DNA of 64,000 nucleotides from an uncultured Armatimonadetes bacterium (lineage in GTDB: Bacteria > Armatimonadota > Hebobacteria > Hebobacterales > Hebobacteraceae). Of the stretch, positions 5,161-58,216 are shown piece by piece. The translations under genes were made by a program, and so were the position numbers. The stretch is from positions 2,976,001 through 3,040,000 of the forward strand of contig OY970296.1 in the NCBI GenBank assembly GCA_963716175.1. The letters are read 5' to 3'. Every line of letters starts with the position of its first letter. Positions within the stretch are counted from its first letter, which is position 1. The notes under the pieces were generated by a model. The model was not told the DNA's origin. It saw only the letters and a list, made by a program, of their open reading frames with translations, and made no database searches.

Positions 5161-5433
5161 ATGACGATGGCCGAGAGGGCTGAGTGGCAGCATCTTGGGG
5201 ACGAGTCGCGGCCGGAGCGCCTGTGGTACCTGGCTTCCGAACTCGATGCTAGCCTGGAGGGGATGCAGCAGCGGCGCAAGCAGAAGCGGGCACGTTTGGA
5301 GCTGGCTGGCATGATCCTGGCGCAGGGTCAGGATGAAGACTGGACCAGATCCGAGCGAGACATCAGCGGTCCACCGGAGGCCTATCCCAAGGGGGTGTCA
5401 CCAGCGAGCGGCGCACTGCACACGGGAGCATGA
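5161..5433 (+). CDS. small hypothetical protein
   Basis: GGAG RBS before ATG. Stop is 4 nt before the Rhs start. No recognisable motif. Confidence 0.4.
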   Translation: MTMAERAEWQHLGDESRPERLWYLASELDASLEGMQQRRKQKRARLELAGMILAQGQDEDWTRSERDISGPPEAYPKGVSPASGALHTGA

Positions 5434-5437
5434 AAAG

Positions 5438-7255: not shown

Positions 7256-7265
7256 GGGGCGATTC

Positions 7266-34028: not shown

Positions 34029-34809
34029 ATGGATCCACCGGAGACAGGGAAGACGCCTGACTCGTTGCGGGCAGCGGTGGTTGCTGAGTACGCACCCGAG
34101 TGGCTTGCCTGTAAGGTGTTCAGGGACTGGTCCAGTGGGGCGGCCTTGGGGACGCCGGAGCGTTACGGGCGTATCTCAAAGCTGCGTCGAGCCCGCGTGA
34201 GCTCACTTGCCAAGGCCCTCTCCCAGTGGACGCAAGGACGCTACGGCGAAGCACAGGCTCGCGCGCTCATCGCAGCCTTCGCGGAAGTCTCTCTCCCTGC
34301 GCAGTTGGAAGAAGCCTACTCTCAGGTGATCTGGTCTCTCGTCTCCCAGATTCGCGGTCTGATCGCGGGGAAAGGGCAACTGCGCGCGCTCGTCGCGGCG
34401 GAGAGCGAATCCCTGCCCGCGGTGGCGGTGCTCCAGTCCGAATTCGGCTACGGCCCGGGAACAGCCGCCGTCATCGTTTCCGAGGTAGGTGACATGGCCG
34501 ACTTCCCCAGAGAAGCAGCCTTCGCTACCTACTGTGGGGTGACTCCGCTCAAACGCAGGTCTGGGGTCTCCCGCGGCGCTGCACGCCTCTCGCGCTTCAC
34601 TAACAAGCGGCTGCTGCGAGCGGTCACGCAGGCGGCGCTGACAGCTGCGACCCACCACGCAGAGTCCCGACTCTACTACCAGAAGAAGCTGGCCGGCCGA
34701 TCCGCGCACCAAGACGCTCGCCCTCATCGCGCTCGCGCGGCATCGTGCCCGGCGGCTCTACAAGGTACTGCGACGTGCGTCGTTACCGTCGGCGGAGGTC
34801 GCCGCGTAA
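34029..34809 (+). mobile_element. IS110-family transposase remnant (5'-truncated, frameshift near 34700)
   Basis: GYGPGTAAVIVSEVGD..F..AAFATYCGVTP..RSG, NKRLLRA. Alternate frame gives ALIALARHRARRLYKVL..*. Confidence 0.85.
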
Positions 34810-34814
34810 CGTGA

Positions 34815-35563: not shown

Positions 35564-38500
35564 CTACTTGCTACCGTTCGCGGAGGATCGGCTCATACGA
35601 CGCTGCTGAAGCCTTGCGCACTCCTCTTGGATGAGCGCGACTTCTGAGCGCGATAGGCCAAGGCCCTCCCGGAGGACCAGCCCATCCAGCTCGCTCCACA
35701 CGTTGGGATGAGCGCCCGGTTTCCTCAGGGCTTTGTCAAGCCGCGCCAGCTTTGCACTGATCCGGTCTACTACTCTCTGCGGGAACTTCTCCAGGTTTGG
35801 AAGGATCGCAGCTCGCGCGTCACGTGGCTCCAGCTTGAGTAGCCCGCCGCCATAGCCGCGCCCAACAAGCTCCAGGCTAAGCCCAGTGAGCGAGGAGTAG
35901 AACGACGCCAGGTAGGGCTTGACGAGGTCGCGGTGCGTCGTGAAGGACACGTGATGCAGTGTGTTGGTACTGTTGACCTTGGCTTCGTTCATGGTCATGC
36001 GGCACCGCCTGCCCGACATGTAGGTCAGAAAAGCATCAGGGGACGGCGGGTACGGCACGGAGTACCAAGGCCATCGCGTACGGCACTTGTACCTAAGGTG
36101 GACCCCCATTCGGTGTCCCTCGTCCAGGTACCTAGCGAGTTCCTCGTCAGCAGCAATGTCTGCGTCAGGCGGAACTCGCAGCAGCAGGTGCTGTGCATCC
36201 GCTTTCCGCAGTCTCGCCAGGTCCTCGCGCGAGAAGACCGCTCCTGCCACGTGGCTGGCGCTGGTGAGGACGGGCTTCAGCCACCCTCTCCTGATGCCTC
36301 TGGCCCGCGCGGCGCTGGGCGCTAGCGTGTAGAACTTAACATCGCCCGTGACGAGCCCGATGCCCACATTCGCCACACTCGCAAAGGGCAGAGCAAGCCC
36401 GCGTTCGATCAGCGACTCAAGGAGATCAAGCACATCCTGGCTGGTGAGCAGCGCCGTCCATTTCGTCGCTTGCCATCCCTGGCGCGCCTCAGGTGCGGCC
36501 GACGCGCGCTCCAGTGATCCTGCAAGGTCATCTGCCCCGCGCACCTCTGTGCGTCTCATCCCAGCCGCATCGGACGCGCTGGCCAGTAGCAGCAGCACAT
36601 CCTGCTGTTTCTCGAATACTCGGCCCTCGAAGAGCACGAACGACAGGCTTCGAAAGCGTTTCCGCAGGAATCTGCGCACAGGTTCAGCATAGTCTGCGGT
36701 TAGCAGCTCTGTCGGCAGTACCATGGCGAGGCGGCCCTGGGGGCGGAGGAAAGCCGTGGCGTGCAGCAGGTATGGCGCCCATGAACTGGCACTCGGCGAG
36801 AGTCGTGCATCCGGCCCAAGAGTGGCATTAAGGACCTTGTTCGCCGCTTCAAGCGCACGGGCGCGATCCGCTCCTTTGAACCGGTGGGCACGGACATACG
36901 GTGGGTTACCCACAACTGCATCAATACCGTGCGAAGGCCCGACGTCGCCAGGGGATACTGAGAAGAAATCGTCGCGGACCATGTGGTTGGCCGGCAGGCG
37001 CTGCCGTCCTCTCCACAGCTCCGCGAACTGGCGCCAAGCCAGTGCGTCCATCTCAACGCCGTAGACGTGCTGCCCGATGGCGTCGCGGCCAGCACCCAAC
37101 GACGACAGCCTGTCACAAGCCTCACGCAGGAACTCTCCGTCACCAGATGCCGGGTCCAGAACGGCATCTGACCGGTTCCTCACCGCCCAGGAGACCAGGA
37201 ACCTAACTATGCCGGTAGGCGTGGCGACCGCGCCGCGGATCTTCGCCGCTGCGCTTGCGAACAGACTCTCTCCGTCTGACGCCATGCTGTCGGCGGGCGA
37301 CGTGCTAGGCAGGGCAGGTATGGAGACGGTGCGAAGCCGCGGTGCCACCGATGGCGGCACAAACACGTCGGCGAACGGCTCGTAGCGGCGACTCGCCTTG
37401 TAGCTCCTCGCAATGTCGTCCAGGGAGATGGAGCCAAAGAGATCGCGGGTGGGCGGCTGGGCGAACCGGAATGACTTGCGAATGGCGGAGTGGATGATCA
37501 CAAGCGCAGGAGGGACTCCCAGGTCGCGCGCGAGAATCTCTTCCAGATACCGGCTCTGCAGTTGAGCGGACTGGTGCCGAGCAACTCTCCCGGAGGACGC
37601 GTCGCCGTTGGCAACCGAGTTCCCCTCACCATGCTGAGAGGACTCGCGTCGGGGGCGACCGCCGGACAGCCGGGCCGTCAGCGACAGGTGAACTAGCGGC
37701 GCTGATTCACTGGCGGACACGAACAGAGTGCCTGTCTCGAGTTGATTCAGGATGTGGCGGGCCGTCTCATGTCCTGCGATGCGCCGGTAGACCTGTGTGT
37801 CGGTCATGCGCAGGAACACCTTGGTCGATCCCAGCCGCAAGGTCGGATCAGACTCACTGGGACTCGATACGTCCCCGGGCCCTGGGAAGGCTAGCTCCAA
37901 CGCGCGGGTTAGCATTGCCTCCGCCGCCATTCCGCGAGGTGAGTAGATAAAGCCCTCGTATATCCTGCGCTCAAGCTCAAAGAAGTCACGGACTAGCGCT
38001 TCCGTATCCGACCCGGCATCCAGCAGAAGGTTCGGGCCGACCTTGCGGAACGCTTGGGCGAGGGCCACCGGCTCGGGGTAGGGCAGGCCAACCGACCTTG
38101 CAGTGCGGGTGACTCCCTCGAGCGCGTCGACTGACAGAGTCCCGTTCACGAGCAGGTTGAGCACTGCCACCTCGTCGCCGGGTGGCATCAAGGCGGAGTC
38201 CGCTCTACCCGCCCGCGATGGCGCTAGCGCCCCCGCCAGAAGGTCCCTCGCCATCGCGATCTGCGACGCCAGCTCCGGCTGTCCTTCCGAGCGCATGTCC
38301 CTGGAGAACTCGGAGGCCAACCTCCGGGCATCGCCTTGGTGGAACCTGCCTAGGCGCTTCCGGAGGAAGACTTCGGCACCATGCGATAGCGCCGTATGGC
38401 CTATGTCATGTAGTAGTGAAGCCAGGACTATCAGGGTAATAGATCGATCGCTTAGGGCGAGGGCCTCCGCTATGGTCCGGCTCAGTTCGGCCACCGCGAG

Positions 38501-38680
38501 CGAGTGCTCGTATCGCGAGTATGAGCGCTGCAACTTGACGACGTACTCCATCGTGCCGAGGAGCCGGATATCTTTGAGGCGCTGCAGGTACCCGCGATCC
38601 AGCACCGGAGCCAGGCCCATTGCCCGCAGCCTGTTCTCGATGGCCTGCACCGAATCGAGTGGGTGCTGCTCTTCAGCCAT
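35564..38680 (-). CDS. HD-domain (SAMHD1-like) phosphohydrolase fused to an N6-adenine DNA methyltransferase with target-recognition domain
   Basis: LQRLKDIRLLG, SRYEHSL, LLHDIGH; VLDPASGDG, VVGNPPY, GRGYGGGLLKLEP. ATG at 38680 overlaps the upstream stop. Confidence 0.88.
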   Translation of the reverse strand: MAEEQHPLDSVQAIENRLRAMGLAPVLDRGYLQRLKDIRLLGTMEYVVKLQRSYSRYEHSLAVAELSRTIAEALALSDRSITLIVLASLLHDIGHTALSHGAEVFLRKRLGRFHQGDARRLASEFSRDMRSEGQPELASQIAMARDLLAGALAPSRAGRADSALMPPGDEVAVLNLLVNGTLSVDALEGVTRTARSVGLPYPEPVALAQAFRKVGPNLLLDAGSDTEALVRDFFELERRIYEGFIYSPRGMAAEAMLTRALELAFPGPGDVSSPSESDPTLRLGSTKVFLRMTDTQVYRRIAGHETARHILNQLETGTLFVSASESAPLVHLSLTARLSGGRPRRESSQHGEGNSVANGDASSGRVARHQSAQLQSRYLEEILARDLGVPPALVIIHSAIRKSFRFAQPPTRDLFGSISLDDIARSYKASRRYEPFADVFVPPSVAPRLRTVSIPALPSTSPADSMASDGESLFASAAAKIRGAVATPTGIVRFLVSWAVRNRSDAVLDPASGDGEFLREACDRLSSLGAGRDAIGQHVYGVEMDALAWRQFAELWRGRQRLPANHMVRDDFFSVSPGDVGPSHGIDAVVGNPPYVRAHRFKGADRARALEAANKVLNATLGPDARLSPSASSWAPYLLHATAFLRPQGRLAMVLPTELLTADYAEPVRRFLRKRFRSLSFVLFEGRVFEKQQDVLLLLASASDAAGMRRTEVRGADDLAGSLERASAAPEARQGWQATKWTALLTSQDVLDLLESLIERGLALPFASVANVGIGLVTGDVKFYTLAPSAARARGIRRGWLKPVLTSASHVAGAVFSREDLARLRKADAQHLLLRVPPDADIAADEELARYLDEGHRMGVHLRYKCRTRWPWYSVPYPPSPDAFLTYMSGRRCRMTMNEAKVNSTNTLHHVSFTTHRDLVKPYLASFYSSLTGLSLELVGRGYGGGLLKLEPRDARAAILPNLEKFPQRVVDRISAKLARLDKALRKPGAHPNVWSELDGLVLREGLGLSRSEVALIQEECARLQQRRMSRSSANGSK

Positions 38681-39953
38681 GGGGTGCTTCTGCCTCGCCG
38701 GATGGTGAGGGGGGCATTGCTTGGCCGACCTCAATGTATGCGCGGTGCTGCCACTCGACCCACCGCGTCGGTGCCACCGGATGGAACCCGCCAGGGCGCG
38801 ATTGGTCCGGCATCTCGATCTCCACACCAGGAAACCAGTTGAAGATGCTGAACTGAAAGGAATCGGCGAGCACTCTGTCCTTTAACCTCCTGGCGAATGC
38901 GATGGTCCGCGTCACGCTACCGTCAGTGTCAAACGGGAAGCCGACTATGAACCCGGCGGAGACGCTGATACCCGCATCCCGAAGCACCGCGAGGGCGTCC
39001 TCCGCCTGGCCCAAGTCAACGCGCTTATGTATGCGCTGGAGAATTTCGGGATCGCCCGACTCCAGCCCTACATAGACTCGGTGGCAGCCTGCCCGCGCCA
39101 TCTCGCGAGCAAGGTCGGCGTTGACTGCGTCAACTCGTGCGTTGCAGAACCACGTCACACTCCGCTGCAGCCCGCGGATGCCTTCACAAAGCCGAGCAGC
39201 ATATTCCCGGTCAGCCATGAAGTCGGGATCAACGAACGATAGTTCGCGGATTCCTCGGTCGCCCGTCAAGTACTCTACCTCAATCAGAACACTCTCGGCA
39301 GACCGCACGCGTCGGCGGCTACCGCTGATCGCCGGTACGCTGCAGAAGGCGCAGCGGTACGGACATCCCCGCTGGGCCTCGATGATAGTGACGGGCGTCT
39401 GGACGCAGTCTGGACTCCAGTAGTGTGAGAAGTCCGGAACCAAGTCCCATGCTGGCATCGGCACGCGCGAGAGTTCGGCCGCCTGTCTCCTCGGGTGCAC
39501 CTGATCCCCCCTGCAGAAGACGCCCGGGATACCCGACAGGCTGCCGCCCGATGACAGCCTCTTACACAGGTCTCGCATGATCGGCTCGCCGTCACCTACT
39601 GCCGCCATATCGAACTCTGCACTCTCGAGGGCGACATCCGGCGCCGCTGTTGGGAGCGGCCCTCCCACGATCACCGCCACGCTGTGTGCAGCCTTCGCAG
39701 CCGCGGCAAAGCGCCGGACCGGTGCGACGGTCAATGTTGACAGGGTCATTCCCACCAGGTCCGGCATCCAGCCGTCGAGACCGGCCAGAACTCCGTTGTC
39801 GTCAACTCCGCGCGCATCCGCATCAACAAGTCGCATGTCAGCGATATCTCTGATGCAGGCGGCAATGTAGAGCAGACCCAAAGGAGGCAGCCGGGTCTCA
39901 CACCTGGTGAAGCCGGCCTGCACGCCCTTCGGCTGGACCAACAGCACATTCAT
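38673..39953 (-). CDS. B12-binding radical SAM protein (class B methylase-like)
   Basis: PPLGLLYIAA, VIVGGPLPT, RGCPYRCAFC, VGLESG, FIVGFP. Confidence 0.9.
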   Translation of the reverse strand: MNVLLVQPKGVQAGFTRCETRLPPLGLLYIAACIRDIADMRLVDADARGVDDNGVLAGLDGWMPDLVGMTLSTLTVAPVRRFAAAAKAAHSVAVIVGGPLPTAAPDVALESAEFDMAAVGDGEPIMRDLCKRLSSGGSLSGIPGVFCRGDQVHPRRQAAELSRVPMPAWDLVPDFSHYWSPDCVQTPVTIIEAQRGCPYRCAFCSVPAISGSRRRVRSAESVLIEVEYLTGDRGIRELSFVDPDFMADREYAARLCEGIRGLQRSVTWFCNARVDAVNADLAREMARAGCHRVYVGLESGDPEILQRIHKRVDLGQAEDALAVLRDAGISVSAGFIVGFPFDTDGSVTRTIAFARRLKDRVLADSFQFSIFNWFPGVEIEMPDQSRPGGFHPVAPTRWVEWQHRAYIEVGQAMPPSPSGEAEAPHG

Positions 39954-40927
39954 GCCTTCCAGGTCCTCGCCATTATCGTGAACACAAGCGCCGCCGCGAA
40001 TATCGCACCGGGGATGTACAGCGTCTCAACGCCGCTCTTGCCTGAGAACACAGGAGTGACGTTGGAGAGGAGCCACACGGCCATGCCAATGAAAAGCCCT
40101 GACCCAAGCCACGATATCTGGAGCAAACGCCTGCGCGAAGAGCCGCGGCTCTCCTCGTACCTTTCCAGGACCCGCTTAATCTCGGCTGCGTCCGCCGGTG
40201 TGCGCGCGTTTGCGCGCAGAAAACTCATCATGTCCTCTGCCTGCCGATCGCGTTGACTCTGCACCTTCTCAGCCACTGCCTGTCGCACAGACGGGTCTTC
40301 GGCCTTCAGGCCGCTCTGACGCAGTATCCGCTGCACCTCTGAGTCGAGAGCGATCCGTGACGGCGTCATCTGTGACTCGAACAGATACCGAGAGTCATCT
40401 CGGTCCGGGTAGCCGACGGAGGCCGGTCTCGACAGCGCGACTATAATGAGCTGGCAGATGCTCATGTACGGCCGGATCGACACCGGGAAGCTGTTATGGT
40501 TCGCTAGCTGCAGCACCAGGTTACCGTCCTGTCCGGGGTTTATGAAGTCGTTAGCGAAATGCACCGACAGGCCGAGCCGGGCGAAGCTGCTACGAGCTAC
40601 GATCCGGCCTGCCACTGTCTTGGACAGTACGATACGCTCGAGGGTCGGCGCGAACAGCACCTCACCTGGCTCAAGGGTGACCTCTTCCCCGGAACTTGCT
40701 GGCGGCAGGGCTTCGAAGAGCGCTTGTGTCTGTGCCTCTGGTGCCGCCGCATCAGCCTTCCTGACGTCCTTCTTGTACCTGGTGAACCGGTTTCCGACGC
40801 GGATATCGACAGACGCGAAACGAATCTGCTTGTCCGGCTCGAATGGGTGATGCTGCGGGTCCGTGGAGATGATCTTCACATCGCCGGACGTGATGGCCGC
40901 CTTTATGTCTACGTCCGATAGGTACAT
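39950..40927 (-). CDS. dcd: dCTP deaminase-like protein with substituted catalytic residues and a C-terminal two-TM extension
   Basis: MYLSDVDI, ASVDIRVG, ARSSFARLGL, INPG..LVLQLAN, ICQL; two hydrophobic C-terminal helices; GGAGG RBS. Confidence 0.8.
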   Translation of the reverse strand: MYLSDVDIKAAITSGDVKIISTDPQHHPFEPDKQIRFASVDIRVGNRFTRYKKDVRKADAAAPEAQTQALFEALPPASSGEEVTLEPGEVLFAPTLERIVLSKTVAGRIVARSSFARLGLSVHFANDFINPGQDGNLVLQLANHNSFPVSIRPYMSICQLIIVALSRPASVGYPDRDDSRYLFESQMTPSRIALDSEVQRILRQSGLKAEDPSVRQAVAEKVQSQRDRQAEDMMSFLRANARTPADAAEIKRVLERYEESRGSSRRRLLQISWLGSGLFIGMAVWLLSNVTPVFSGKSGVETLYIPGAIFAAALVFTIMARTWKA

Positions 40928-41856
40928 GTCACCCCTCCATTACGCGGCATTGTTCTCTCATTCGGCTCATCGTGAAATGTTACCTGCGGCTACGCCCTTG
41001 TGCGGCTCGCGCACGGATGGCTGGGAGAGAACACATGTGCGCAGGGGGCCTCGGCCATAGCACGGTAGAGAAACCTATACCCGTGCTTTCTCGCGGGGAA
41101 CGCGGCTCAGAGAGGCTACAGCGGCGACGGCCAATGGCCGCCGCCGCTGTCTCTTGCATCGCTCGGGCCTAGCCACCAACGCAGGCGTACGCCCCTGTTA
41201 GCTCCTCCTTCGGCACTGGGATCGAAAAGGACAGGAGCATCGGTAGCCCGTCAGGAATGTAGTCCCGTTTTCCCCGGTGTTTCTGCACCGCATACCGCGA
41301 ACATGGTCCCCCCGATTACTATCGGCTTCACGATACCGGGTTTCGGCATGTTCGAGACGTGGCGGCGGCGGCGCATCCGGACATGACCCGCGGAAAGAAG
41401 CCATAGCTGCGTTTCGTGCCTGCTGTAGCGGTTAGTCCCCCGTGGAACCGCCATAGCCTTGCCTTGACCAGCTTTCCCGGTCTATCGTGGGCAACGCCAT
41501 CTTGCTGGGGGATGAACCCACGTGGAAGGCGCTGGGACCTCGATCTGCTTGGTAATGAAGGCGGTGCTGCTCAGTGTAGGTGTCGGGCGCTTGCAGGACC
41601 GCTAGCGTTAGATCTGTGACTCCCTGGGCTGCCTCCTCTGGCTGATCAGGCGACGAGTTTGCCTGTCAAGGCCCTGTAGGGCCGGCGCGAGAGAGCAGGA
41701 GACCTGTCTGTACACGTCGAGCGTGAACGGACTGCGCTCACGAGATGACGAACCTGGTGGCCGACACACAGTTTCTGGGGAAACGGCTGTTTGTCGCGTC
41801 ATAACATTGGGTATGGCGCCAGCCCAGGGCGGGGGGGAGCGCCGAGCGCGTCTACC

Positions 41857-44800
41857 CTAGCCGATCGGCAGTTCCTGGTCGCCCCGCCGACCCCTTCGCC
41901 GCCTGACCGGTTGCTTAGCAGCATGACCCAGGAGGTCCCATACAAGCTCGTCGATCCCGACACGCTCGGAGGTGAGGATGCGTCTGACCTCCGAACGCTG
42001 ACGTCCTATGTCGCCTTGCGTGATCTGCGGGGCCAGCGCGGCGACTGCTCGGTGGCATTCCTTGCTCAGCGTCGCGAGCCTTTCGTGGGTCGCGTTGGCC
42101 GCATCGTAGCGGGGAATAGGGAGCACCTCGAACGGGAGCCGTGTTATGTCACGTTCGCCCCATTGTCCACTTGTTTGGTACGGCTTTATCGCCTGGTTCA
42201 CAGCACTGGAGTTTAGCAGTGAGCAGAGGTAGTGCGCCTCATCTTCGTCCTTCGTCTCGTAGTAGTAGGTGACCATGTCCGCCGCAAATCCGTTCACGCG
42301 CAGTCCGCCAGCATCCAGCGCCCTGTTGGCGTTCACGACGCATGCCGTGAGGTGGGTGCCGGACTTGTTGTACAGAAGCTTATAGCGCCCCTTGAGAACC
42401 TGGCAGGTGAGGGTATGCTGGTAGTCGAGGCGATTGTAGATCGTCCTCTCCGTAGTCGTTTTCTTGTTGTCAGCCCAAGCGGCTTCTGTCTTCGCTAGCC
42501 ACTCGGCCAGGGCCGGGTACCCCGCGGAAAGGGCGGCCTCTCGAGTAAGGAGGCCCATGTTCGTGCCTCTCCTTATGGGCTGCAGCGGGAGGACGACCAG
42601 GTCCAAGGTGAGGTGACCGAACGGCAGCAGATGCTTCCCGAGGAGAGTCGCGTAGAGGAAATCCGCCTCCACCGGGCCCTCGAAGCGCATGTCCCTCCAG
42701 GGCGTCTTGGCGTCCTTCTGAATGTCTGGGGTGGTCTCCACGTATGGTCGTTCCGGGCTAACTGTTCCCCACTCGTCTCTAGCGGCCGGCCGAACAAACC
42801 AGAAGCAACGCGGGAATATCGAGGCGCCTGCCCTGAGCGAACTCCAGTAATGGCTTGCTGCCGTCTGTGGGAGGGGCGAGTAGCTCTCCTGATCCATTCG
42901 AAGGATCGGTCTAGCGAGATCCCATACCAGGTTCCTTGCTGGCAGGCTGCCGGTGGCCCTGAGCATCGGGATGTTGGCGGCAAGCGTCTTGCCTTTCGTC
43001 CGCACAAGCAGGCACGCGGGGACGTTGAACAGAGGGGCGATGCCCTCGAGGTCCACCCCGCGTGTGAAGCCGAGGCGCTGGAAGGTGAGGTGTTGTTTGG
43101 CGCCGGTCAGCGTGCTCTTGGGCATGACGAACGCGAGGGTACCTTTCGGGCCCACGTATCTTCCGAAGGAGAACTCGTAGAAAAGCGTAGAGGTGTCCAT
43201 CACCGTGAACAGCTTCACATCTGACTTATCGAGCAAGCCATGCCGGAAGACAAGCTTCTTGACCTGCGCCTGGTACCGGGCGTCCTGGATGTAACGGTAG
43301 GCCAGCCATGGTGGGTTTCCGACGACGAAGTTGAACCGCCTGTTGGAGAGGTAGATGGGGCGGTAGGCGTTGCGGAGGATGAAACCCCAGACAGTGTCCC
43401 GGTTCTGCCGAACAAGCCGGATCATCAGCTTGAGGTTATCCTGCCAGAGGGCAAGCCCCATGGAATCGCCATGGCGCCACTTCCTCGCCACGTACTCGCG
43501 GAATCCGGGTGTCAAGACTCGTTCGCCCTCGGGCCTGCGTGCGTAATCGCACATCGTGTCAATGACGTCGTCAAGAAGGATGGGCGACTTGGCCATGCTG
43601 GCTGGTATATGAAAGTACTGCTCGACTTCTTCTCTGCGGCGCCCAGTGAAGCGCTCCTCGGTACCGACAAGGATCCTGATGGGCGCGCTACCTTGGCGGC
43701 TCTCCTCCTGCAACAAAGCGTCCGCCATGTAGACGGGGATGGTGATGTTCCCCTTGTGCTGCTTCAGGTCGGGAGCAAGCGCGAGGGCGTAGTTGACCCG
43801 GGAAATCGTGACAGCGAGGGGATGGACGTCCACCCCCATGATGTTCCTCTGGGCGTAGGTCGCAAGAAGCGTGCCGCGCCTGCGAGCCCGCCGCGCTTGT
43901 CGAATAGCCACGAAGAGGAAAGTGCCCGATCCACAGGCGGGGTCCAAGACACTGCCCTTGCCTTTGTAGCCCGCCTCGGTTAAGGTCAGTTCGGCCAGCC
44001 AGTCAGGGGTGTAGAACTCGCCAAGGTCGTGTCGAGTCTCGGGGTCCACTAGACCCTGGTATAGCTCCTTGAGGAGGTCCTCGTTGATCTTGGCCGGGCT
44101 GTAGATGTACAGGTGTTGGAGCATGCCGTTGAGCAACTGGACGGCGTCGTTTCTCACGGCATCGCTCAGCACCCACGCGAAGAAGTCTTCTTCGGCAAGG
44201 TTGAGCAACCCGTTGCGCCGGAACACCTCGCCGTCAACGATCTCCGTGAGGGACCGAGCGCCTCGCGGATGGCGTTTGAACAGGGCCAGGTAGGCCAGCA
44301 CCTTGGCGAGGAGGGAGAGGTAGGTGTGCCGGATGAACAAGTCCTGAGTCCCAACCTCACGGCTGCCGTAGACCTTAGCCAAGAGGCTGTTCCATTCGGC
44401 GAACTTTACCTGGGTAGTCCCATCCTCCTTGAGGTGCTCCAACATGCCAAGCAGGCTGGCGGAGGCGGCTGAGAAGACGGCGCTGTCCGCGCCGAACCTC
44501 CTTAGAACATCGGCGGAGGTGGGCGCGAGGTTCTTTTGCGAGAATAGGAAACTGTCAAACCAGAGGAGAGCTGCGTCCGGAGCGTCAGCTTCGAGGCGCT
44601 GCAGATCAACAGGCTGCCCGACCGGCCGCAGGGTGTCTTCGTGCAGCGCGTATACCTCGAACGTGATTCCATCGGTGATGATGCCGAAGCCGTGTTTCGG
44701 CACCTGAGGTGATCTCAGGTACTTGCTGAGTTCACGCTTGCCTGTATCCCTCTCGGCCTCGAGATCACGCTTGAACTCGAAGACAAGATCGCGATAGAGC

Positions 44801-45000
44801 GCGTCGATCCTGCCACGCAGCTTAAGGGCCTCGACGCCCCTCTCGATGCTGATTTCTTCTGGCTCTATACCAAAGGCACGTTCGATGAACCCAAGGAACA
44901 GATGCCGACGGTAGTCGTGAGCCTGTCTATCCTTCCGCGCTCTTTCGGCGACTCGGACGTACTTCCCCAGTTCCTCAAAGAAGCGGTCGCGTCTCGCCAC
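41857..45000 (-). CDS. type IIG restriction-modification enzyme (fused endonuclease, N6-adenine methyltransferase and TRD)
   Basis: GRIDAL..VFEFKR (PD-(D/E)xK), LGEFYTP, LDPACGSGTF, VVGNPPW. Confidence 0.88.
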   Translation of the reverse strand: MARRDRFFEELGKYVRVAERARKDRQAHDYRRHLFLGFIERAFGIEPEEISIERGVEALKLRGRIDALYRDLVFEFKRDLEAERDTGKRELSKYLRSPQVPKHGFGIITDGITFEVYALHEDTLRPVGQPVDLQRLEADAPDAALLWFDSFLFSQKNLAPTSADVLRRFGADSAVFSAASASLLGMLEHLKEDGTTQVKFAEWNSLLAKVYGSREVGTQDLFIRHTYLSLLAKVLAYLALFKRHPRGARSLTEIVDGEVFRRNGLLNLAEEDFFAWVLSDAVRNDAVQLLNGMLQHLYIYSPAKINEDLLKELYQGLVDPETRHDLGEFYTPDWLAELTLTEAGYKGKGSVLDPACGSGTFLFVAIRQARRARRRGTLLATYAQRNIMGVDVHPLAVTISRVNYALALAPDLKQHKGNITIPVYMADALLQEESRQGSAPIRILVGTEERFTGRRREEVEQYFHIPASMAKSPILLDDVIDTMCDYARRPEGERVLTPGFREYVARKWRHGDSMGLALWQDNLKLMIRLVRQNRDTVWGFILRNAYRPIYLSNRRFNFVVGNPPWLAYRYIQDARYQAQVKKLVFRHGLLDKSDVKLFTVMDTSTLFYEFSFGRYVGPKGTLAFVMPKSTLTGAKQHLTFQRLGFTRGVDLEGIAPLFNVPACLLVRTKGKTLAANIPMLRATGSLPARNLVWDLARPILRMDQESYSPLPQTAASHYWSSLRAGASIFPRCFWFVRPAARDEWGTVSPERPYVETTPDIQKDAKTPWRDMRFEGPVEADFLYATLLGKHLLPFGHLTLDLVVLPLQPIRRGTNMGLLTREAALSAGYPALAEWLAKTEAAWADNKKTTTERTIYNRLDYQHTLTCQVLKGRYKLLYNKSGTHLTACVVNANRALDAGGLRVNGFAADMVTYYYETKDEDEAHYLCSLLNSSAVNQAIKPYQTSGQWGERDITRLPFEVLPIPRYDAANATHERLATLSKECHRAVAALAPQITQGDIGRQRSEVRRILTSERVGIDELVWDLLGHAAKQPVRRRRGRRGDQELPIG

Positions 45001-45702
45001 TGCGCTCCCCTCGTATGCGGAGGATACGTTGCGGTATTCACCATGGAAGGCGGTTTCGCCTGCCGCCCGTCCAGGGAATCGCCCCCTGTGCCCGGCCCAA
45101 TCCGTGGTTCGTTTGCGGAGTGAGGCGCATTAGTGGCCCCACCCCTGGCGGGCGTAGGGAGGATGGTAGGCCCGGGGTACGGTCGGGCCCAGTAACGCGC
45201 TCCGTGCGCCTGGGAACGGGTCTCGCCCCTTACGCGGGTTGCGGTTCTTACAGAAGCATCCACTTCCCCACTGACGAGCTACTTATCGAGATCGCTATCG
45301 GCATGGGCCACCAGCTGTTGGAGATCAGGTTCGTCCGATGCCGCGGCCGCAGCGCTCAGCAAATGGGCGACTATGGGCGGCAGCCATCGGGTGAGGCGTG
45401 TCTGCCCATCAGTCGCCGCCGGATCTTCATTGGGCTTGGGTTAGGTGGCGAGGTGGGCATGAGACTGGGGGAGGGAAGGCTCTTGCCCCTGATGCTGGCT
45501 GCCCGGGTTCCTTGGGCGCCAGAGTGGCACTGTGGGTCGCGATCACTCCTTCTGGGCCAACAAAGTCGCGGGCCGGGCGAAGGCATACCACATCACTCCG
45601 CCGACCGCTCTGGGCATTCGAGCGCTGCTGACTAGGGCATGGCGCGGGGCATTCCAGTCTGATGGCGGGGCTGTTCGTGAGGGCTAGGCCTCCGGGTACG
45701 CG

Positions 45703-47895
45703 TCAAGAGCGCCACTGGAGGTACGAGATGATGCCGGCGGCTACTGTGGCGATGCCCATGATCCAGAACCAGATTCGGACGAATCCCAACGGGAGGGCGA
45801 GCGCTAGCCCGCATGCAAGGGCTCCGCCCACCTCATAGAGGCTCTTCGCCCATCGTGGCCAGTGAACCCACGGAAGCAGCAGGTAGCCAATGAGAATACC
45901 ACACGATATGGCTAACCATCCTGCCCATTTGGCAACGCCGAGTGTCCTGGCCAGCCTAAGCTCCGCACTCCTGGCGCGGTCCGCCTCTTTCGTTTCGCCA
46001 CTCTGCGCTTCGGTGAGCATCGTCTCTAGACTCACCTTCTCCGTTGCCAGATCTTCCTGCATTGCCTCCGCTGCCTGCCTTCGCTGGCGCTCATGGGCCA
46101 ACTCGCCTTCGAGTTCCTGTAAGTGCAGATCTCTGACTCTCGTCTGCCCCTTGAGCCGGAGGTACTCCTGCTCCGCCAGTTCCTGGGCCCGTTTCGCGGC
46201 CCATGTCTGCTGCTGCAGTAGACTCAGAGAGCGCGCAATTGCTGCGTCTACCTGGTGATCACGCGCATCTTCAGACGCAGGCGCCCGAAGGCTAGCTGCG
46301 AGGCGCTCATCAACCATCGTGAGAACGGCGGCCTGTGCGGCGACCGCCTCATCTATTCCTGCTTCGATCGCATAGCGGTCGATGCGAGCACAGACGCGTT
46401 GCGCAGCCTCCGACGGAAGGCGAGCGATCGTCCCGATGAAGGGGCAAGCAACCAACTGGGCGAAAGCCCTATCGTAGTCGGCGGTCCTGGGGAGCGCCCA
46501 TCGCGTCATCTGCATGCAGTGGTCCGGATGGATACAGAATGGGATCTCGTTGCCGTCTTCTCGCCGTCGAATCCAATCATACCGTCTGAGTTTCCCGTCA
46601 CATGTTACGAACCATGCGCGAGCTCGCGCAAAGGATGTGGTGTCCCCGCGGAGTCTGAGGATGAGCAGTCGGTGGAATGCATCGTGGGTGATGATCTCGC
46701 CGTGCACGCCCGGGTCGCGTGCCGCCAGGAGCACAGCGCCTTCCTCCTGGGGAAGCGAAGGTGTGGCCATCGCGTCATCGTGCGGGTTATCGTCGACCAT
46801 TACGCCGAGTTGAGGAAGCAGCGCGTCGACGTTCCGAGCTCTGGCTGCAAACTCATCGACGCTGACCCCCGTACGCGCGTACTCGTCATAGTAGAGGCTG
46901 ACGAAGTCTTGCTCCGATGAGGCCCTGGCGGCAAGAGCGGCGAGTGTGCGTGACGCAATAGGATGCGCCCTGATCCGCTCAATGTTCGCCCGCAGCGATG
47001 TCCGCAACTCCTTGAGCGTTCTCTGCGAGACAAGGAGCTTGCCCCCAATCTGTCTGATAACATCTGCGAGCGTCCGGATCTGGAAGAAGTGCTGGGGGCC
47101 CTGCAGGTTGAGCAGACGGTACAGGACGTTCGTGTCAAGGTAGAAGAGGGTGCCCTGGAAAACGCCCCTGACGAGAGATGAGCACTTCGGATCAATGTGA
47201 GCAGTATGTACGATGCAGGCGTTGTCGAGTAAGCGGGTCAAGTAAAGGGCACGGTCACCTTCGGCGTCCAGCCAGAATGCCGTGAGTGTCTCGCGCCGCA
47301 TGCCCATCAGGTGCTGATCCACCGGCGGCAGGGAAGAGAAGATGCCTTCGATCGTTGGTGCCAGCTTCCCTTCGCTCGGCGGCGGCCCCGCGCCTAGCAG
47401 CGCCTGGGTCTGGGCACCGTAGCGGAGTAGCACTTGCCGGTTGAACGCCTGCTGGTCAGTGAGGAGTCGAGACAGTTCCTGGTCAGTGAGCGACGGGTAC
47501 TGCTCCTGCAGGTGGATGTGCCAGGCATCCATGACACGTCCCTCGAGTCGGTCCGCTTCTTCGATTGCCTGCTCGAGAGCACGTCGGTGCTCGGGGGTCA
47601 GGTTGTACTTCGGATCTCGGCGCCCTGAGTGGCTAATGCGCCGTCCTCGCCGCTTGCTGACTGACCTCAGAACGTGGCGGATCTCTGCAGGCTCAAATCG
47701 CAGTCCGAAGTCCGCCTCGATCGCCGAAGAGATCTCGCTTGGGCTGTAGGACTCATCGCTAGGGAGGCTCCAGAGAGCCCTCTCCACGAACCCCATTGTG
47801 ATCTGGTCAGCAAGTGGTGTTCCGGGCTCGAACGCCCCGATGTGGAGAAGCCTGCGAATAGCTTCATAGCGAGCAGGTCCGCCTAAGGCTGTCAT
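45703..47895 (-). CDS. PIN-domain protein with C-terminal coiled coil and TM helices (defence-island-like)
   Basis: FYLDTNVLY, HDAFH, FVTCD; coiled-coil stretch then hydrophobic helices at the C-terminus. Confidence 0.7.
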   Translation of the reverse strand: MTALGGPARYEAIRRLLHIGAFEPGTPLADQITMGFVERALWSLPSDESYSPSEISSAIEADFGLRFEPAEIRHVLRSVSKRRGRRISHSGRRDPKYNLTPEHRRALEQAIEEADRLEGRVMDAWHIHLQEQYPSLTDQELSRLLTDQQAFNRQVLLRYGAQTQALLGAGPPPSEGKLAPTIEGIFSSLPPVDQHLMGMRRETLTAFWLDAEGDRALYLTRLLDNACIVHTAHIDPKCSSLVRGVFQGTLFYLDTNVLYRLLNLQGPQHFFQIRTLADVIRQIGGKLLVSQRTLKELRTSLRANIERIRAHPIASRTLAALAARASSEQDFVSLYYDEYARTGVSVDEFAARARNVDALLPQLGVMVDDNPHDDAMATPSLPQEEGAVLLAARDPGVHGEIITHDAFHRLLILRLRGDTTSFARARAWFVTCDGKLRRYDWIRRREDGNEIPFCIHPDHCMQMTRWALPRTADYDRAFAQLVACPFIGTIARLPSEAAQRVCARIDRYAIEAGIDEAVAAQAAVLTMVDERLAASLRAPASEDARDHQVDAAIARSLSLLQQQTWAAKRAQELAEQEYLRLKGQTRVRDLHLQELEGELAHERQRRQAAEAMQEDLATEKVSLETMLTEAQSGETKEADRARSAELRLARTLGVAKWAGWLAISCGILIGYLLLPWVHWPRWAKSLYEVGGALACGLALALPLGFVRIWFWIMGIATVAAGIISYLQWRS

Positions 47896-48228
47896 CCAGG
47901 ATCCCTCTTCCCGGGCTGAGTCTGTTGTGCAGTGACAGCTTCGGCATCGCGCTGGACGGAACCGCGCTATACCGTGCGGTGCCTGAATAGGGCCATCTAC
48001 CTTAATACGCTATTCGACGGCAGCACCGGTCCTTCCTTCACTCCTGGCCTTGTTGACCAGAGGTCCGGGAGGACATCTGCTCATCCCTGCACGGCGAGGT
48101 GCAATACCCGCCCGGCATTGCGTGGAGCGTCGCGGGCCCAGGCGGCACATAAGCGCCGTTCTGTCCCAAGCGCTGCCGCAGTACGTTCGTGTATCGACGC
48201 CGGGCCAGTTCTCGCTACCGGCTGCCAC

Positions 48229-48690
48229 TTAGGATGCCGGTTCCCCGCCGCCCGTGCGGATGTAGGTGCGCATTGCCTCTATCTCCGCGCTGAAGCCCCA
48301 TTCTGCCGCCATACGATCCGCCTCCTGCTCGCACGACTCATCGTCGATCCTGTGGTTGCACACGACGTGGGCGAACTCGTGGGCCACGATCCCCACTCTC
48401 ATCTCCTCCGAATAGCAGGGGAGGCGCGGGTCAAGCCAGATCGCGCGGCTCAGCGCGGCCGGACGTTCCAGTACCTTCGTGCAACTCCGGCCGGGGCAGG
48501 AGACCCATGATACGAGGCAGGTGTCGATCAGCTTATGCGCCTCATCCCTTGGCATCTTGCTGAGGACCTTCACGCACGCTCTGCACACCGACTCGTATTC
48601 CTGTGTGTACTGCGCCGACTGGGTCACGGGGCTGGTGCCGTCCGAGACATACACCCGCGGCGGGTACAGCGTGAACATGGAGAACTGCAT
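48229..48690 (-). CDS. small HExxH zincin-like protein (ImmA/IrrE-like)
   Basis: AGGAG RBS; GIVAHEFAHV..CEQEADRMAAEWGF. Confidence 0.65.
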   Translation of the reverse strand: MQFSMFTLYPPRVYVSDGTSPVTQSAQYTQEYESVCRACVKVLSKMPRDEAHKLIDTCLVSWVSCPGRSCTKVLERPAALSRAIWLDPRLPCYSEEMRVGIVAHEFAHVVCNHRIDDESCEQEADRMAAEWGFSAEIEAMRTYIRTGGGEPAS

Positions 48691-56169: not shown

Positions 56170-57093
56170 CTAGCCTGGCTGATCGCCTGCCGGCCCGAGC
56201 ATCCCCTCCAGCTTCTCGACGGCGGCCAGCTTGGTGCGCACATCCGAGTGCAGGTATCTCGCCGTCGTCCCGATGTCCGCGTGCCCCAGCAGCTCCTGCA
56301 CCGTGCGGATGTCGGCGCCCGAGCGGATGAGGTGGGTGGCAAAGGTATGGCGGAGTTTGTGGGGGGTAATGCCTTTGCCCGCGAGCCCGGCTTTGCCGAG
56401 CGTGCGCGCCAGCATCCGGCTGATGGCTCTGCCGGAGATGGGCTGGCCGAACTGGCTCACAAAGAGCCGGTGGCTGTCCGTCCTCTTGCGCTGGCGCAGG
56501 TACTGCTCGATGGCCGCAACGGCCTGCTCTGCCAGAGGCACCACTCTCTCCTTCGCCCCTTTGCCGTGTACCAGCAGTTGCCGGTTCTCCAGGTCCAGAT
56601 CCTCCAGGCTGATCTGGGCGATCTCGCTGCGCCGCATGCCCGTGGAGAGCAGCAGCACCACCAAGCACTTGTGCCAGGGCCGCTGGGCTGCCTGCAGGAG
56701 TCGCTGGGCATCTGCTTCCGTGAGCGTCACGGGCACCTGCTGTTCCAGTCTGGGCAGAGGCAGCCTGCGGGCGGGATTGCCCGAGACATGGCCCATGTCC
56801 TGGAGGAAGCCAAAGAAGGAGGACAACACCCAGAGCTTCCGTCTCACCGTCAGGGGTGCTCGATCTGCCAGGCTCACCGCGAACTGCATCACCTGCTGGC
56901 GCGTGATCTGATCGGGAGGGGGCGGCTGACCCAGGCGCTGGGAGAGGAACTCCGAGAAGGCCCGCAGGTCGCGGCGGTACGCCTTGACGGAGATGGGAGC
57001 GCAGCTGCGATAGCCCCTCAGGTACTCCAGGAACATCGCCACCGCCTCCTCGAAGGAGAGCGTGCCGGCCTCGGCGTCGTGGGTAGCGGTCAC
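56170..57093 (-). CDS. XerC/D-like tyrosine recombinase (copy 2)
   Basis: GTG start overlapping the upstream stop; TGMRRSE, GKGAKER, HKLRHTFAT, LLGH, TTARY. Confidence 0.92.
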   Translation of the reverse strand: MTATHDAEAGTLSFEEAVAMFLEYLRGYRSCAPISVKAYRRDLRAFSEFLSQRLGQPPPPDQITRQQVMQFAVSLADRAPLTVRRKLWVLSSFFGFLQDMGHVSGNPARRLPLPRLEQQVPVTLTEADAQRLLQAAQRPWHKCLVVLLLSTGMRRSEIAQISLEDLDLENRQLLVHGKGAKERVVPLAEQAVAAIEQYLRQRKRTDSHRLFVSQFGQPISGRAISRMLARTLGKAGLAGKGITPHKLRHTFATHLIRSGADIRTVQELLGHADIGTTARYLHSDVRTKLAAVEKLEGMLGPAGDQPG

Positions 57094-58055
57094 GGCTGTG
57101 CTCCCTCCTCTCTCTGCGGAACACTCTCCCCGAGCAGACCCGTCAGCCTTCCTACTGCCGCCAGCTTCGTGCGCACATCCGAGTGCAGGTACCGCGCCGT
57201 CGTCCCCAGATCGGCATGGCCCAGGAGCTCCTGCACGGTGCGCACATCCACGCCCTTGTGGATGAGCTGGGTAGCGAAGGTGTGGCGCAGCTTGTGAGGG
57301 GTAATCCCCTGGCCCGCCAGCCCCGCCTTCTCCAGCACCTGGTCCAGCATGGCGTTGACCACGTGGCCTCGGATGGGCTGTCCACGGGAGTTCACAAAGA
57401 GCCGCCGGCTCTGGGTGCGGGGCCGGTGGGGCAGGTACTGCTGGATGGCCGCCACGGCCTGACGGGTGAGGGGGACGATCCGCTGCTTGGCTCCCTTCCC
57501 GTGCACCAGCAGTTGCCGGTTGGTCAGGTCCACCTCCTCCAGGCTGATCAGCACCGCCTCGCTTCTGCGCAGGCCCGTCGCCAGCAGCAGCATGATGAGG
57601 CACCGATGCCAGGGCAGTTCGGCCGCCGCCAGCAGTTGCTGCGCCTGCTCCTCTGAGAGCGTCACCGGGATGTGCTGCTCCAGCTTCGGGAGGGGTAGTC
57701 TCTTGGCGGGATTGCCCTGGACATAGCCCATATCCTGAAGGAAGCCGAAGAAGGAGGAGAGACAGGCCAGCTTGCTGCGCACCGTGATCGGGGACCAGTG
57801 CGACAAGGAGACCGCGTACTGAATCACCAGCTGGCGGGTGATCGCAGCCGGAGCTGGCAGCGGCCCGGGTTGCGAGGAGAGGAACTGCTGGAAGTTGCGC
57901 AGGGTCGTGGCGTAGGCTCGGACAGAGGCAGGAGCGCAGCTGCGGTAGCTCCGCAGGTACTCCAGGAACATCGGCACCGCCTGCTCCAAGGGGAGCTCGT
58001 CCCCGGTGGAGGGCGGTGCGGCACGGGCCGCTTCGGCCTGGGCGAGAGTGGTCAT
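57090..58055 (-). CDS. XerC/D-like tyrosine recombinase (copy 1)
   Basis: GAGGAGG RBS; TGLRRSE, GKGAKQR, HKLRHTFAT, LLGH, TTARY. Confidence 0.92.
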   Translation of the reverse strand: MTTLAQAEAARAAPPSTGDELPLEQAVPMFLEYLRSYRSCAPASVRAYATTLRNFQQFLSSQPGPLPAPAAITRQLVIQYAVSLSHWSPITVRSKLACLSSFFGFLQDMGYVQGNPAKRLPLPKLEQHIPVTLSEEQAQQLLAAAELPWHRCLIMLLLATGLRRSEAVLISLEEVDLTNRQLLVHGKGAKQRIVPLTRQAVAAIQQYLPHRPRTQSRRLFVNSRGQPIRGHVVNAMLDQVLEKAGLAGQGITPHKLRHTFATQLIHKGVDVRTVQELLGHADLGTTARYLHSDVRTKLAAVGRLTGLLGESVPQREEGAQP

Positions 58056-58216
58056 GCACGCCTCCTCTGGTGGATGGTTGCGGCATGACATGAATCACTT
58101 CAAGCGGCGAACAAGTCCAGGCCTTTGTGCAAGTATTCTGTGGGGTGGGCCCTAGTGCGGGTATTTCGTATCCCCTCGATTTCGGGCCAGGATGGCTCTA
58201 GGAGCCACGAGAAGAG

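Follow-up and report, generated by a model that had tools for sequence, protein, structure and literature searches.

The window analysed here is a stretch of 64,000 nucleotides from an uncultured Armatimonadetes bacterium (contig OY970296.1, positions 2,976,001 to 3,040,000), and its reverse strand carries a gene for a protein of 325 residues that resembles dCTP deaminase (Dcd). In alignments and models this Dcd-like protein has lost the residues of the catalytic site, has kept those that bind the nucleotide and ends in a predicted membrane tail, and the combination is conserved across a family of relatives, to which we refer as tailed pseudo-Dcd proteins. We propose that the Dcd-like protein senses a nucleotide that it can no longer deaminate and is coupled to an effector in the membrane, and we put the probability of this reading at roughly 40%. 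The gene and its parts are listed below, with residues numbered along the protein.

39950..40927, reverse strand: the whole Dcd-like gene, an open reading frame (ORF) of 325 residues whose C-terminal part is predicted to form a helical linker and two membrane helices.
40932..40938, reverse strand: Shine-Dalgarno-like GGAGGGG, 5-11 nucleotides 5' of the Dcd-like ATG, read from the sequence.
40358..40927, reverse strand: Dcd-like (dUTPase-fold) domain with the C-terminal lid, residues 1-190, placed by phmmer, Foldseek and AlphaFold2 (AF2).
40571..40594, reverse strand: RSSFARLG phosphate- and base-binding motif, residues 112-119, intact and aligned to E. coli R110-G117.
40538..40540, reverse strand: codon of N130, at the position of D128 in E. 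coli Dcd (phmmer alignment).
40508..40510, reverse strand: codon of Q140, at the position of E138 in E. coli Dcd (phmmer alignment).
40130..40354, reverse strand: helical linker, residues 192-266, from the AF2 helices and with no Pfam match.
40070..40126, reverse strand: predicted membrane helix 1, residues 268-286, Kyte-Doolittle 1.61, inside the AF2 helix 247-294.
39968..40024, reverse strand: predicted membrane helix 2, residues 302-320, Kyte-Doolittle 1.95, inside the AF2 helix 301-324.

The ORF is a real gene and no chance frame, since its product matches both the Pfam family DCD (PF22769; 6.3e-34 over residues 3-162) and the NCBIfam model TIGR02274 (dCTP_deam). The score against the latter, 131.8 bits, lies above the cut-off of 92.8, so that routine annotation would name the gene dCTP deaminase. 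The dUTPase and DCD_N families match more weakly; the Pfam matches comprise Dcd and dUTPase-fold families only, and the zinc-binding domain of cytidine and dCMP deaminases is not among them. The closest chain in a phmmer search of all PDB chains is E. coli Dcd (1xs1), with an E value of 1.7e-22 and 33% identity between residues 5-193 of the query and 5-191 of the chain.

In E. coli Dcd, we take E138 to be the catalytic base and D128 to be the counterpart of the dUTPase aspartate. In the DCD-DUT enzymes, an aspartate activates water for hydrolysis at the alpha-phosphate, in addition to the catalytic glutamate, and substitutions at E138 or E145 abolish deamination in the E. coli and M. jannaschii enzymes. 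The Dcd-like protein aligns with N130 at the first of these positions (in FINPGQDG) and Q140 at the second (in LVLQLANH), the two replacements that the original prediction, made from the letters alone, had named and that our alignment with 1xs1 bears out. With both acids replaced, the protein lacks, in this alignment, the catalytic residues of Dcd and of DCD-DUT alike. The binding motif had also been called intact, and it is (ARSSFARLGLSV; R112, S113, S114 and R117 are all present). More specifically, S113, S114, R117 and H123 correspond to E. coli S111, S112, R115 and H121, and in the lid Y173 and R180-Y181 align with Y171 and K178-Y179. According to PDB titles, E138A, E138D and E145Q/A variants of Dcd have been made and crystallised with nucleotides, and dCTP, dUTP and dTTP have all been bound in one site of Dcd enzymes.

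The same replacements are found throughout the family. A word-indexed search retrieved four close homologues (48-63% identity, 324-327 residues), all with Asn and Gln at the two positions. When a profile was run against 1.84 billion cluster representatives (clusters at 50% identity), 541 matched at 1e-30 or better. The best 150 mostly have 320-370 residues and a match along the whole profile, and more than 100 of these 150 are full-length tailed forms. We aligned 164 proteins, consisting of the best 150 of the 541 and the hits of the word-indexed search. Asn occupies the Asp position in all 115 aligned homologues of at least 300 residues, and the Glu position of these long members holds Q in 82 and E in 11; the other 22 have T (7), P (4), M (4), I (3), V (2), A (1) or R (1). 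Both acids are present in the three canonical-length D/E proteins of the alignment. A survey of 80 loci from species-representative genomes gave the same division: the 21 long forms (321-364 residues) all have Asn, accompanied by Q in 17, E in 2, I in 1 and L in 1, and at least one tail membrane helix is predicted in 19 of them, while 58 of the 59 short forms (175-240 residues) have both Asp and Glu, the remaining one (L044) being N and E.

We then placed 164 Dcd domains in a FastTree phylogeny, of which 142 were family rows and 22 were canonical rows (every third short locus). The canonical D/E rows all lie beyond one branch, with a support of 86, and the tree requires a single change of the D/N character and eight changes of the E character. 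As far as aligned residues tell, the strict correlate of the tail is the Asp-to-Asn replacement; Glu-to-Gln is the commonest state at its position, and others occur. Replacement of Glu by Gln does not go strictly with the membrane tail, since 11 of the 115 long members keep E and some of these have two membrane helices. Judged from the aligned family, the replacement of the active site is selected and is not decay. The family is sizeable and phylogenetically scattered. In tblastn searches of plasmids (46 records) and of phages (48 records), Dcd of canonical length only was found and no match covered at least 80% of the query; five loci on viral contigs were all partial matches to residues 81-195.

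Comparison of 158 family rows with 58 canonical Dcd rows shows which parts of the pocket have been kept. The canonical rows have D at the Asp position and E at the Glu position without exception (58/58 each), whereas the family has N at the former in 158/158 and, at the latter, Q in 113, E in 18, T in 10 and other residues in the remainder. Of the 158 family members, 156 have R117 and 147 have S113, and the pocket residues Q34, S39, D41, R43, E97, R112, S113, R117, N143, Q159, Y173 and Y181 are conserved about as well in the family as in the canonical rows. Three pocket changes relative to canonical Dcd are family-specific, namely T to P (138/158 rows), Q to D or E (142/158) and G to D (98/158); they fall at residues 138, 184 and 127, respectively, of the Dcd-like protein, which itself has V at 138. 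Near the family pocket, two acids are thus gone and two new acids have been acquired. Because the ligand contacts are kept, the Asn is fixed and the catalytic position drifts to P, M, I, V and A, the family site appears to be a binding site and not an active site. The dead-enzyme reading is stronger than when it was first made from one sequence, given Asn in 115/115 long homologues, an unconserved Glu position and the retention of phosphate-binding and lid residues.

The AF2 model of the Dcd-like protein, built from an 80-row family alignment, has a mean predicted local distance difference test (pLDDT) score of 90.4. The Dcd beta-fold occupies about residues 1-165, with pLDDT 94-98 over most of the domain, and in a Foldseek search residues 1-195 reached target TM-scores of 0.86-0.88 against M. 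tuberculosis DCD-DUT and E. coli Dcd. Helices follow the lid region at residues 192-205, 212-240, 247-294 and 301-324. Using a Kyte-Doolittle rule (19-residue window, at least 1.6), the two segments 268-286 and 302-320 were predicted as membrane helices, in agreement with the helical linker and two hydrophobic helices that had been proposed. Reading of the sequence shows RRR before the first hydrophobic segment and R..K after the second; since basic residues flank both outer ends, the Dcd domain and both ends of the tail should be cytoplasmic. Against Pfam, residues 192-325 gave nothing but noise at E values up to 1, and no SLATT family matched either this segment at that limit or the complete protein at a limit of 0.01. 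An attempt to predict a complex of three tails (residues 192-325, from an 80-row alignment) ended without an answer (score 0.00) and bears neither way.

The tail varies within the family. By the hydropathy rule, two membrane helices are predicted in the tails of 42 long members out of 115, one in those of 35 and none in those of 38; the helix-free members are about 340-375 residues long and have a soluble, helical and acidic tail with no Pfam match. For the soluble tail of one such protein (P0098), scores in the ESM Atlas reached at most 0.79 and are not usable. Pfam scanning of 150 members found DCD in all 150 and PNP_UDP_1, EAD11 and DUF1653 in one each. In P0155 (551 residues, N/Q), the dead Dcd domain is followed by a helical linker and then by a PNP_UDP_1 nucleosidase domain (4.3e-15), which also matches the PADLOC CBASS model 'Effector PN-superfamily' (1.5e-13). 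EAD11, 'effector-associated domain 11', occurs in one of the 150 members, and its bearer was not among the seven candidates that were scanned individually. The apparent Dcd-DUF1653 fusion P0119 was set aside as a likely frameshift read-through, in which an arginine-rich stretch replaces the membrane helices. Sensor-effector proteins of conflict systems are usually built in this way, with a dead enzyme domain in front of a membrane, nucleosidase or adaptor module that can be exchanged, and, because P0155 has an effector domain behind the same dead Dcd domain, the Dcd-like domain takes the usual position of a sensor domain. With one PNP tail and one effector-associated domain, the modular tails indirectly support a sensor-effector layout.

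Taken together, these observations suggest the following mode of action. The cytoplasm-facing Dcd-fold domain, presumably trimeric as its fold implies, would still bind a pyrimidine (deoxy)nucleoside triphosphate or a related nucleotide, and would neither deaminate nor hydrolyse it. The helical linker would tie this domain to the two-helix membrane hairpin, and the occupancy of the three interface pockets could be relayed through it to the hairpins, which might in turn disturb the membrane or send a signal from it. A response to phage infection would be the most likely setting.

We next analysed the neighbourhoods of relatives at 34 long-form loci, comprising 21 from genomes (112 ORFs within about 2.6 kb) and 13 from metagenomes (62 ORFs within about 3.5 kb). 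PADLOC was run on the neighbours lacking an obviously housekeeping Pfam match (65 of the 112 and 17 of the 62). In a Blastocatellia metagenome-assembled genome (MAG), an N/E pseudo-Dcd gene lies between type I hsdM and hsdS and is followed by a GajB-like UvrD helicase (L021, 6147-11916). Elsewhere, the pseudo-Dcd gene adjoins IetA and IetS together with a DUF1016/PDC-S02 protein (L022), an MNT/PDC-S09 protein beside a HEPN protein (L093) or an OLD/AriA-like ATPase (L032), or has a type II methyltransferase as neighbour (L094, 1.4e-106); four further loci (L025, L028, L078 and L104) gave weaker or generic matches. Thirty-nine canonical Dcd loci had full flanks, and as a rough control all 133 neighbours of 20 of them were passed to PADLOC, with generic hits only (a small methyltransferase as 'mad2', an ABC ATPase, TnpB as Cas12f and PDC-M51B). 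Because the control loci are mostly from related haloarchaea, we regard the association with defence genes as a tendency and claim no enrichment.

Several points weigh against the sensor-effector proposal. A clear defence gene is near only about 5-8 of the 34 related loci, and enrichment is not established. No signal-making enzyme, such as a cyclase or a TIR protein, lies beside the gene here or in most related loci; in the window, domain and PADLOC scans of the operon genes and of the larger ORFs gave no CD-NTase, no pyrimidine cyclase and no other source of such a signal. PADLOC 2.0 has no model that matches the Dcd-like protein (0 families at E up to 0.01). The 38 long members without a predicted membrane helix have no recognisable effector, and for them 'effector' may be the wrong word; the 11 that retain Glu may have kept deaminase activity. 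DUF1653, the most frequent partner, lacks a known function, and this genome yielded no copy of it. Finally, ligand binding and membrane damage by the Dcd-like protein are predictions. The original sensor-effector interpretation of the gene is accordingly supported in part: the layout has gained from the PNP tail and the effector-associated domain, each in one relative, whereas no signal generator of the CBASS or Pycsar type is found in the operon and no PADLOC model fits.

The operon itself brings in the first alternative. The Dcd-like gene is translationally coupled to two downstream genes, which the original prediction had missed.

38673..39953, reverse strand: B12-binding-domain radical SAM gene, 426 residues, whose ATG overlaps the Dcd-like stop codon (ATGA).
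35564..38680, reverse strand: gene for a SAMHD1-type HD domain joined to an Eco57I-type N6 DNA methyltransferase with its C-terminal domain, 1038 residues, whose start overlaps the radical SAM stop by 8 nucleotides.

The radical SAM protein matches Radical_SAM (7.5e-26) and B12-binding (5.8e-14) of Pfam and has a CxxxCxxC motif. Its best PDB matches are AprD4 (6fd2, 9.9e-34) and OxsB (5ul2, 1.3e-8), and its score against the NCBIfam AprD4 model, 128, is far below the cut-off of 500. The HD-methyltransferase matches HD (1.9e-9), N6_Mtase (1.6e-11) and M_Eco57I_C (4.5e-11) of Pfam and MTase_II of PADLOC (7.4e-102), and an identical product of 1038 residues stands on a database record. Its HD part, in which the H...HD motifs are intact, finds 2hek (9.4e-10) and SAMHD1 (2e-5) in the PDB, and no match to OxsA at E up to 0.1. 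Each of the two proteins has about 13-14 orthologues with 34-58% identity. Five orthologue pairs agree in contig size and source (162332, 9445, 6345, 11073 and 29379 nucleotides), from which we take the two genes to share a contig and to form a conserved pair, present on at least five contigs besides this one. The radical SAM orthologue was not found in 400 other genomes of the phylum at E of 1e-60 or better.

The Dcd-like protein could be a dedicated subunit of the nucleotide chemistry of this operon, one that binds, presents or senses a substrate or product and is no autonomous effector; it might, for example, act as receptor for a modified deoxynucleotide that the radical SAM and HD-methyltransferase proteins produce, or tether both to the membrane. 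The overlapping reading frames and the (deoxy)nucleotide-handling folds of all three proteins speak for it, as do a Dcd-like orthologue (P0003, 56% identity) and a radical SAM orthologue (P0172, 58%) that both come from an ENA contig of 7464 nucleotides, although their co-location is deduced solely from the size and source of the contigs. There is also a precedent: the B12-radical-SAM enzyme OxsB and the HD phosphohydrolase OxsA act together on deoxynucleotides in the biosynthesis of oxetanocin A (PMC9204698). The homology to OxsB is weak, however, and OxsA is unmatched. Radical, oxidative or nucleotide enzymes adjoin pseudo-Dcd genes at five related loci. A 2OG-Fe(II) oxygenase gene lies directly 5' of pseudo-Dcd in a Micromonosporaceae MAG (L026, 6594-7718) and in Winogradskyella (L027, 6325-7783), the latter with a deoxynucleoside kinase in addition; NDK, CYTH and HD proteins stand beside it in L098 and a radical SAM protein in L112; and in L104 (8001-10924) an overlapping HAD hydrolase gene lies 3' of it (PADLOC 'Hydrolase' PDLC03008, 6.6e-26), followed by a 174-residue unknown protein and guanylate kinase. 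On the other side, none of the five contigs that carry the conserved pair holds a Dcd-like match of the word-indexed search, and among the 21 genome loci of the wider family not one has a B12-radical-SAM gene as a neighbour. We consider this alternative unlikely, while keeping it in view.

A second alternative is that the Dcd-like protein is a membrane-anchored nucleotide-binding protein outside immunity, which buffers or reports pyrimidine deoxynucleoside triphosphates (dNTPs) or regulates a membrane process, the variable region being incidental. No defence gene could be recognised within about 2.6-3.5 kb at about three quarters of the related loci, where many neighbours are ordinary metabolic genes, and the effector-like tail is missing in the 38 long members without membrane helices. 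However, the distribution is patchy and rare. The genome, a single contig of 4.56 Mb, has one other dUTPase-fold gene (43 bits, classical Dut motifs, about 2.2 Mb away), and a full-length Dcd-like match was found in none of 40 relatives, 14 genomes of the same family giving at best an E value of 8.7e-5. Given these relatives and the separate Dut, the Dcd-like gene is accessory and not the route of the lineage to dUMP, and the search of the 400 phylum genomes likewise found no orthologue of its coupled radical SAM partner. Transposase or recombinase genes are adjacent in seven related loci (L018, L027, L029, L096, L099, L104 and L120) and in the window, where an IS110-family transposase (34029-34814, forward strand) lies about 750 nucleotides beyond the operon; the region around the Dcd-like gene may be a mobile or variable island, and this accessory setting counts in favour of the sensor-effector reading. 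The fusions to PNP and EAD11 also argue against a non-immune role, which we judge distinctly unlikely.

Upstream of the Dcd-like gene, the window continues as follows.

41857..45000, reverse strand: type IIG-like restriction-methyltransferase gene, 1047 residues, separated by a 929-nucleotide gap; a neighbour whose membership of the operon is not established.

This protein matches REase_MTase_IIG of PADLOC (1.8e-86) and N6_Mtase, Eco57I and, weakly, MmeI_N of Pfam. Two large DNA methyltransferase genes hence border the region of the Dcd-like gene. Next to it, at 45015-48510, are three ORFs (206, 730 and 192 residues) without a Pfam or PADLOC match, of which the 730-residue protein gives a weak PIN hit (0.0057). 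A 642-residue tyrosine recombinase (56170-58098, reverse strand) lies about 15 kb away, past two large SLH/FG-GAP surface proteins, and at 5333-13361 (forward strand) two adjoining RHS-repeat proteins of 640 and 2031 residues are found within a long run of glycosyltransferase genes. An Rfam scan of the 929-nucleotide gap gave only a sub-threshold rpsB match (18.4 bits against 40), and a scan for promoters and terminators gave 0 promoter-like sites. The one terminator-like site lies inside the HD-methyltransferase gene, and this count is below the shuffled mean. Among public sequencing runs, three DNA runs from one study contain 0.05-0.23 of the sampled words, and no RNA run was among those listed.

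The proposed sensor could also be combined with the operon chemistry into one new immune pathway. The dead Dcd domain would then receive a modified deoxynucleotide that the co-translated radical SAM and HD-methyltransferase proteins produce, the latter with a sequence-reading methyltransferase part; recognition of foreign DNA would set off radical chemistry with a dNTP as substrate, and either its product or the resulting imbalance of dNTPs would open the membrane effector. We regard this extended scheme as improbable.

DUF1653 suggests a further possibility, in which the pseudo-Dcd family is the toxic half of a toxin-antitoxin-like module and the window copy has lost or replaced its partner. 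A DUF1653 gene (90-217 residues) abuts or overlaps pseudo-Dcd in 10 of the 34 loci (L013, L014, L016-L019, L078, L094, L101 and L120), from Planctomycetota, Solirubrobacterales, Treponema and metagenomes, that is, across several phyla. Its structure has been solved (3be3), but no function is known; no DUF1653 was seen in the clade of the window protein, the single fusion (P0119) looks like frameshift read-through, and the search that found none in this genome found none in 14 control genomes either. Such a module is a very improbable explanation here.

The least probable alternative is that the protein is still an enzyme, through altered chemistry using N130 and Q140 or through a mixed trimer with Glu supplied by another Dcd-fold subunit: the NCBIfam score above the dCTP deaminase cut-off and the new family-specific acids near the pocket would fit, but nothing catalytic can depend on a Glu position at which nine different residues occur, including P, M, I, V and A, substitutions at E138 and E145 abolish deamination in the E. 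coli and M. jannaschii enzymes, and the operon has no second Dcd-fold gene, the only other one in the genome being the distant Dut.

If the Dcd-like protein is indeed a sensor coupled to an effector, the trimeric dUTPase/Dcd fold would be added to the few enzyme folds that have become receptors for nucleotides. As a deoxynucleotide sensor this fold would be a natural choice, and phages heavily rewire deoxynucleotides (dUTP, hydroxymethyl-dCTP and others). The family, at 541 clusters, is large enough for study. Its members are currently annotated as 'dCTP deaminase', so that metabolic reconstructions counting them as Dcd are probably wrong. A literature search, with subscription journals and supplements outside its scope, found no description of the tailed pseudo-Dcd family and, by title, nothing relevant on a radical SAM, SAMHD1 and methyltransferase defence module; the radical SAM and HD-methyltransferase genes of the operon make up, in their own right, a conserved module for which there is no description.

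Compared with known systems, the Dcd-like protein shares with Dcd (1xs1) and with DCD-DUT (M. tuberculosis 2qxx, M. jannaschii 1ogh) the fold, the RSSxARLG motif and the tyrosines of the C-terminal lid. It differs from them in having Asn and Gln for Asp and the catalytic Glu, in the family-specific pocket changes (T to P, Q to D or E, G to D), in its helical and predicted membrane tail of 135 residues and in being encoded by an accessory gene. The dCTP deaminase of defensive dNTP-depletion systems is of the zinc-dependent dCMP-deaminase type, whereas the Dcd-like protein has no match to a zinc-binding deaminase domain and no PADLOC hit. Membrane effectors of the CBASS Cap15, Pycsar PycTM and SLATT types combine a cytoplasmic nucleotide-binding domain with one or two membrane helices. 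The Dcd-like protein has a similar layout, and its gene lies in variable, defence-rich regions as theirs do; its sensor, however, would be of the Dcd/dUTPase fold and not a SAVED, cNMP-binding or beta-barrel domain, its helices are C-terminal after a long helical linker, there is no SLATT or PADLOC match and no cyclase is nearby. Nucleosidase effectors of the PNP type are described from CBASS, Detocs and similar systems (bioRxiv 10.1101/2023.01.24.525353); the relative P0155 has this effector domain, where the window protein has the predicted membrane hairpin instead. The downstream genes resemble OxsB/OxsA and AprD4 in that a B12-domain radical SAM gene stands beside an HD phosphohydrolase in both (PMC9204698), and they differ from OxsA in that the HD domain here is of the SAMHD1 type and is fused to a DNA methyltransferase. 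Set beside these systems, the tailed pseudo-Dcd protein would be, on the proposed reading, a nucleotide sensor plus effector built on a sensor fold not used before.

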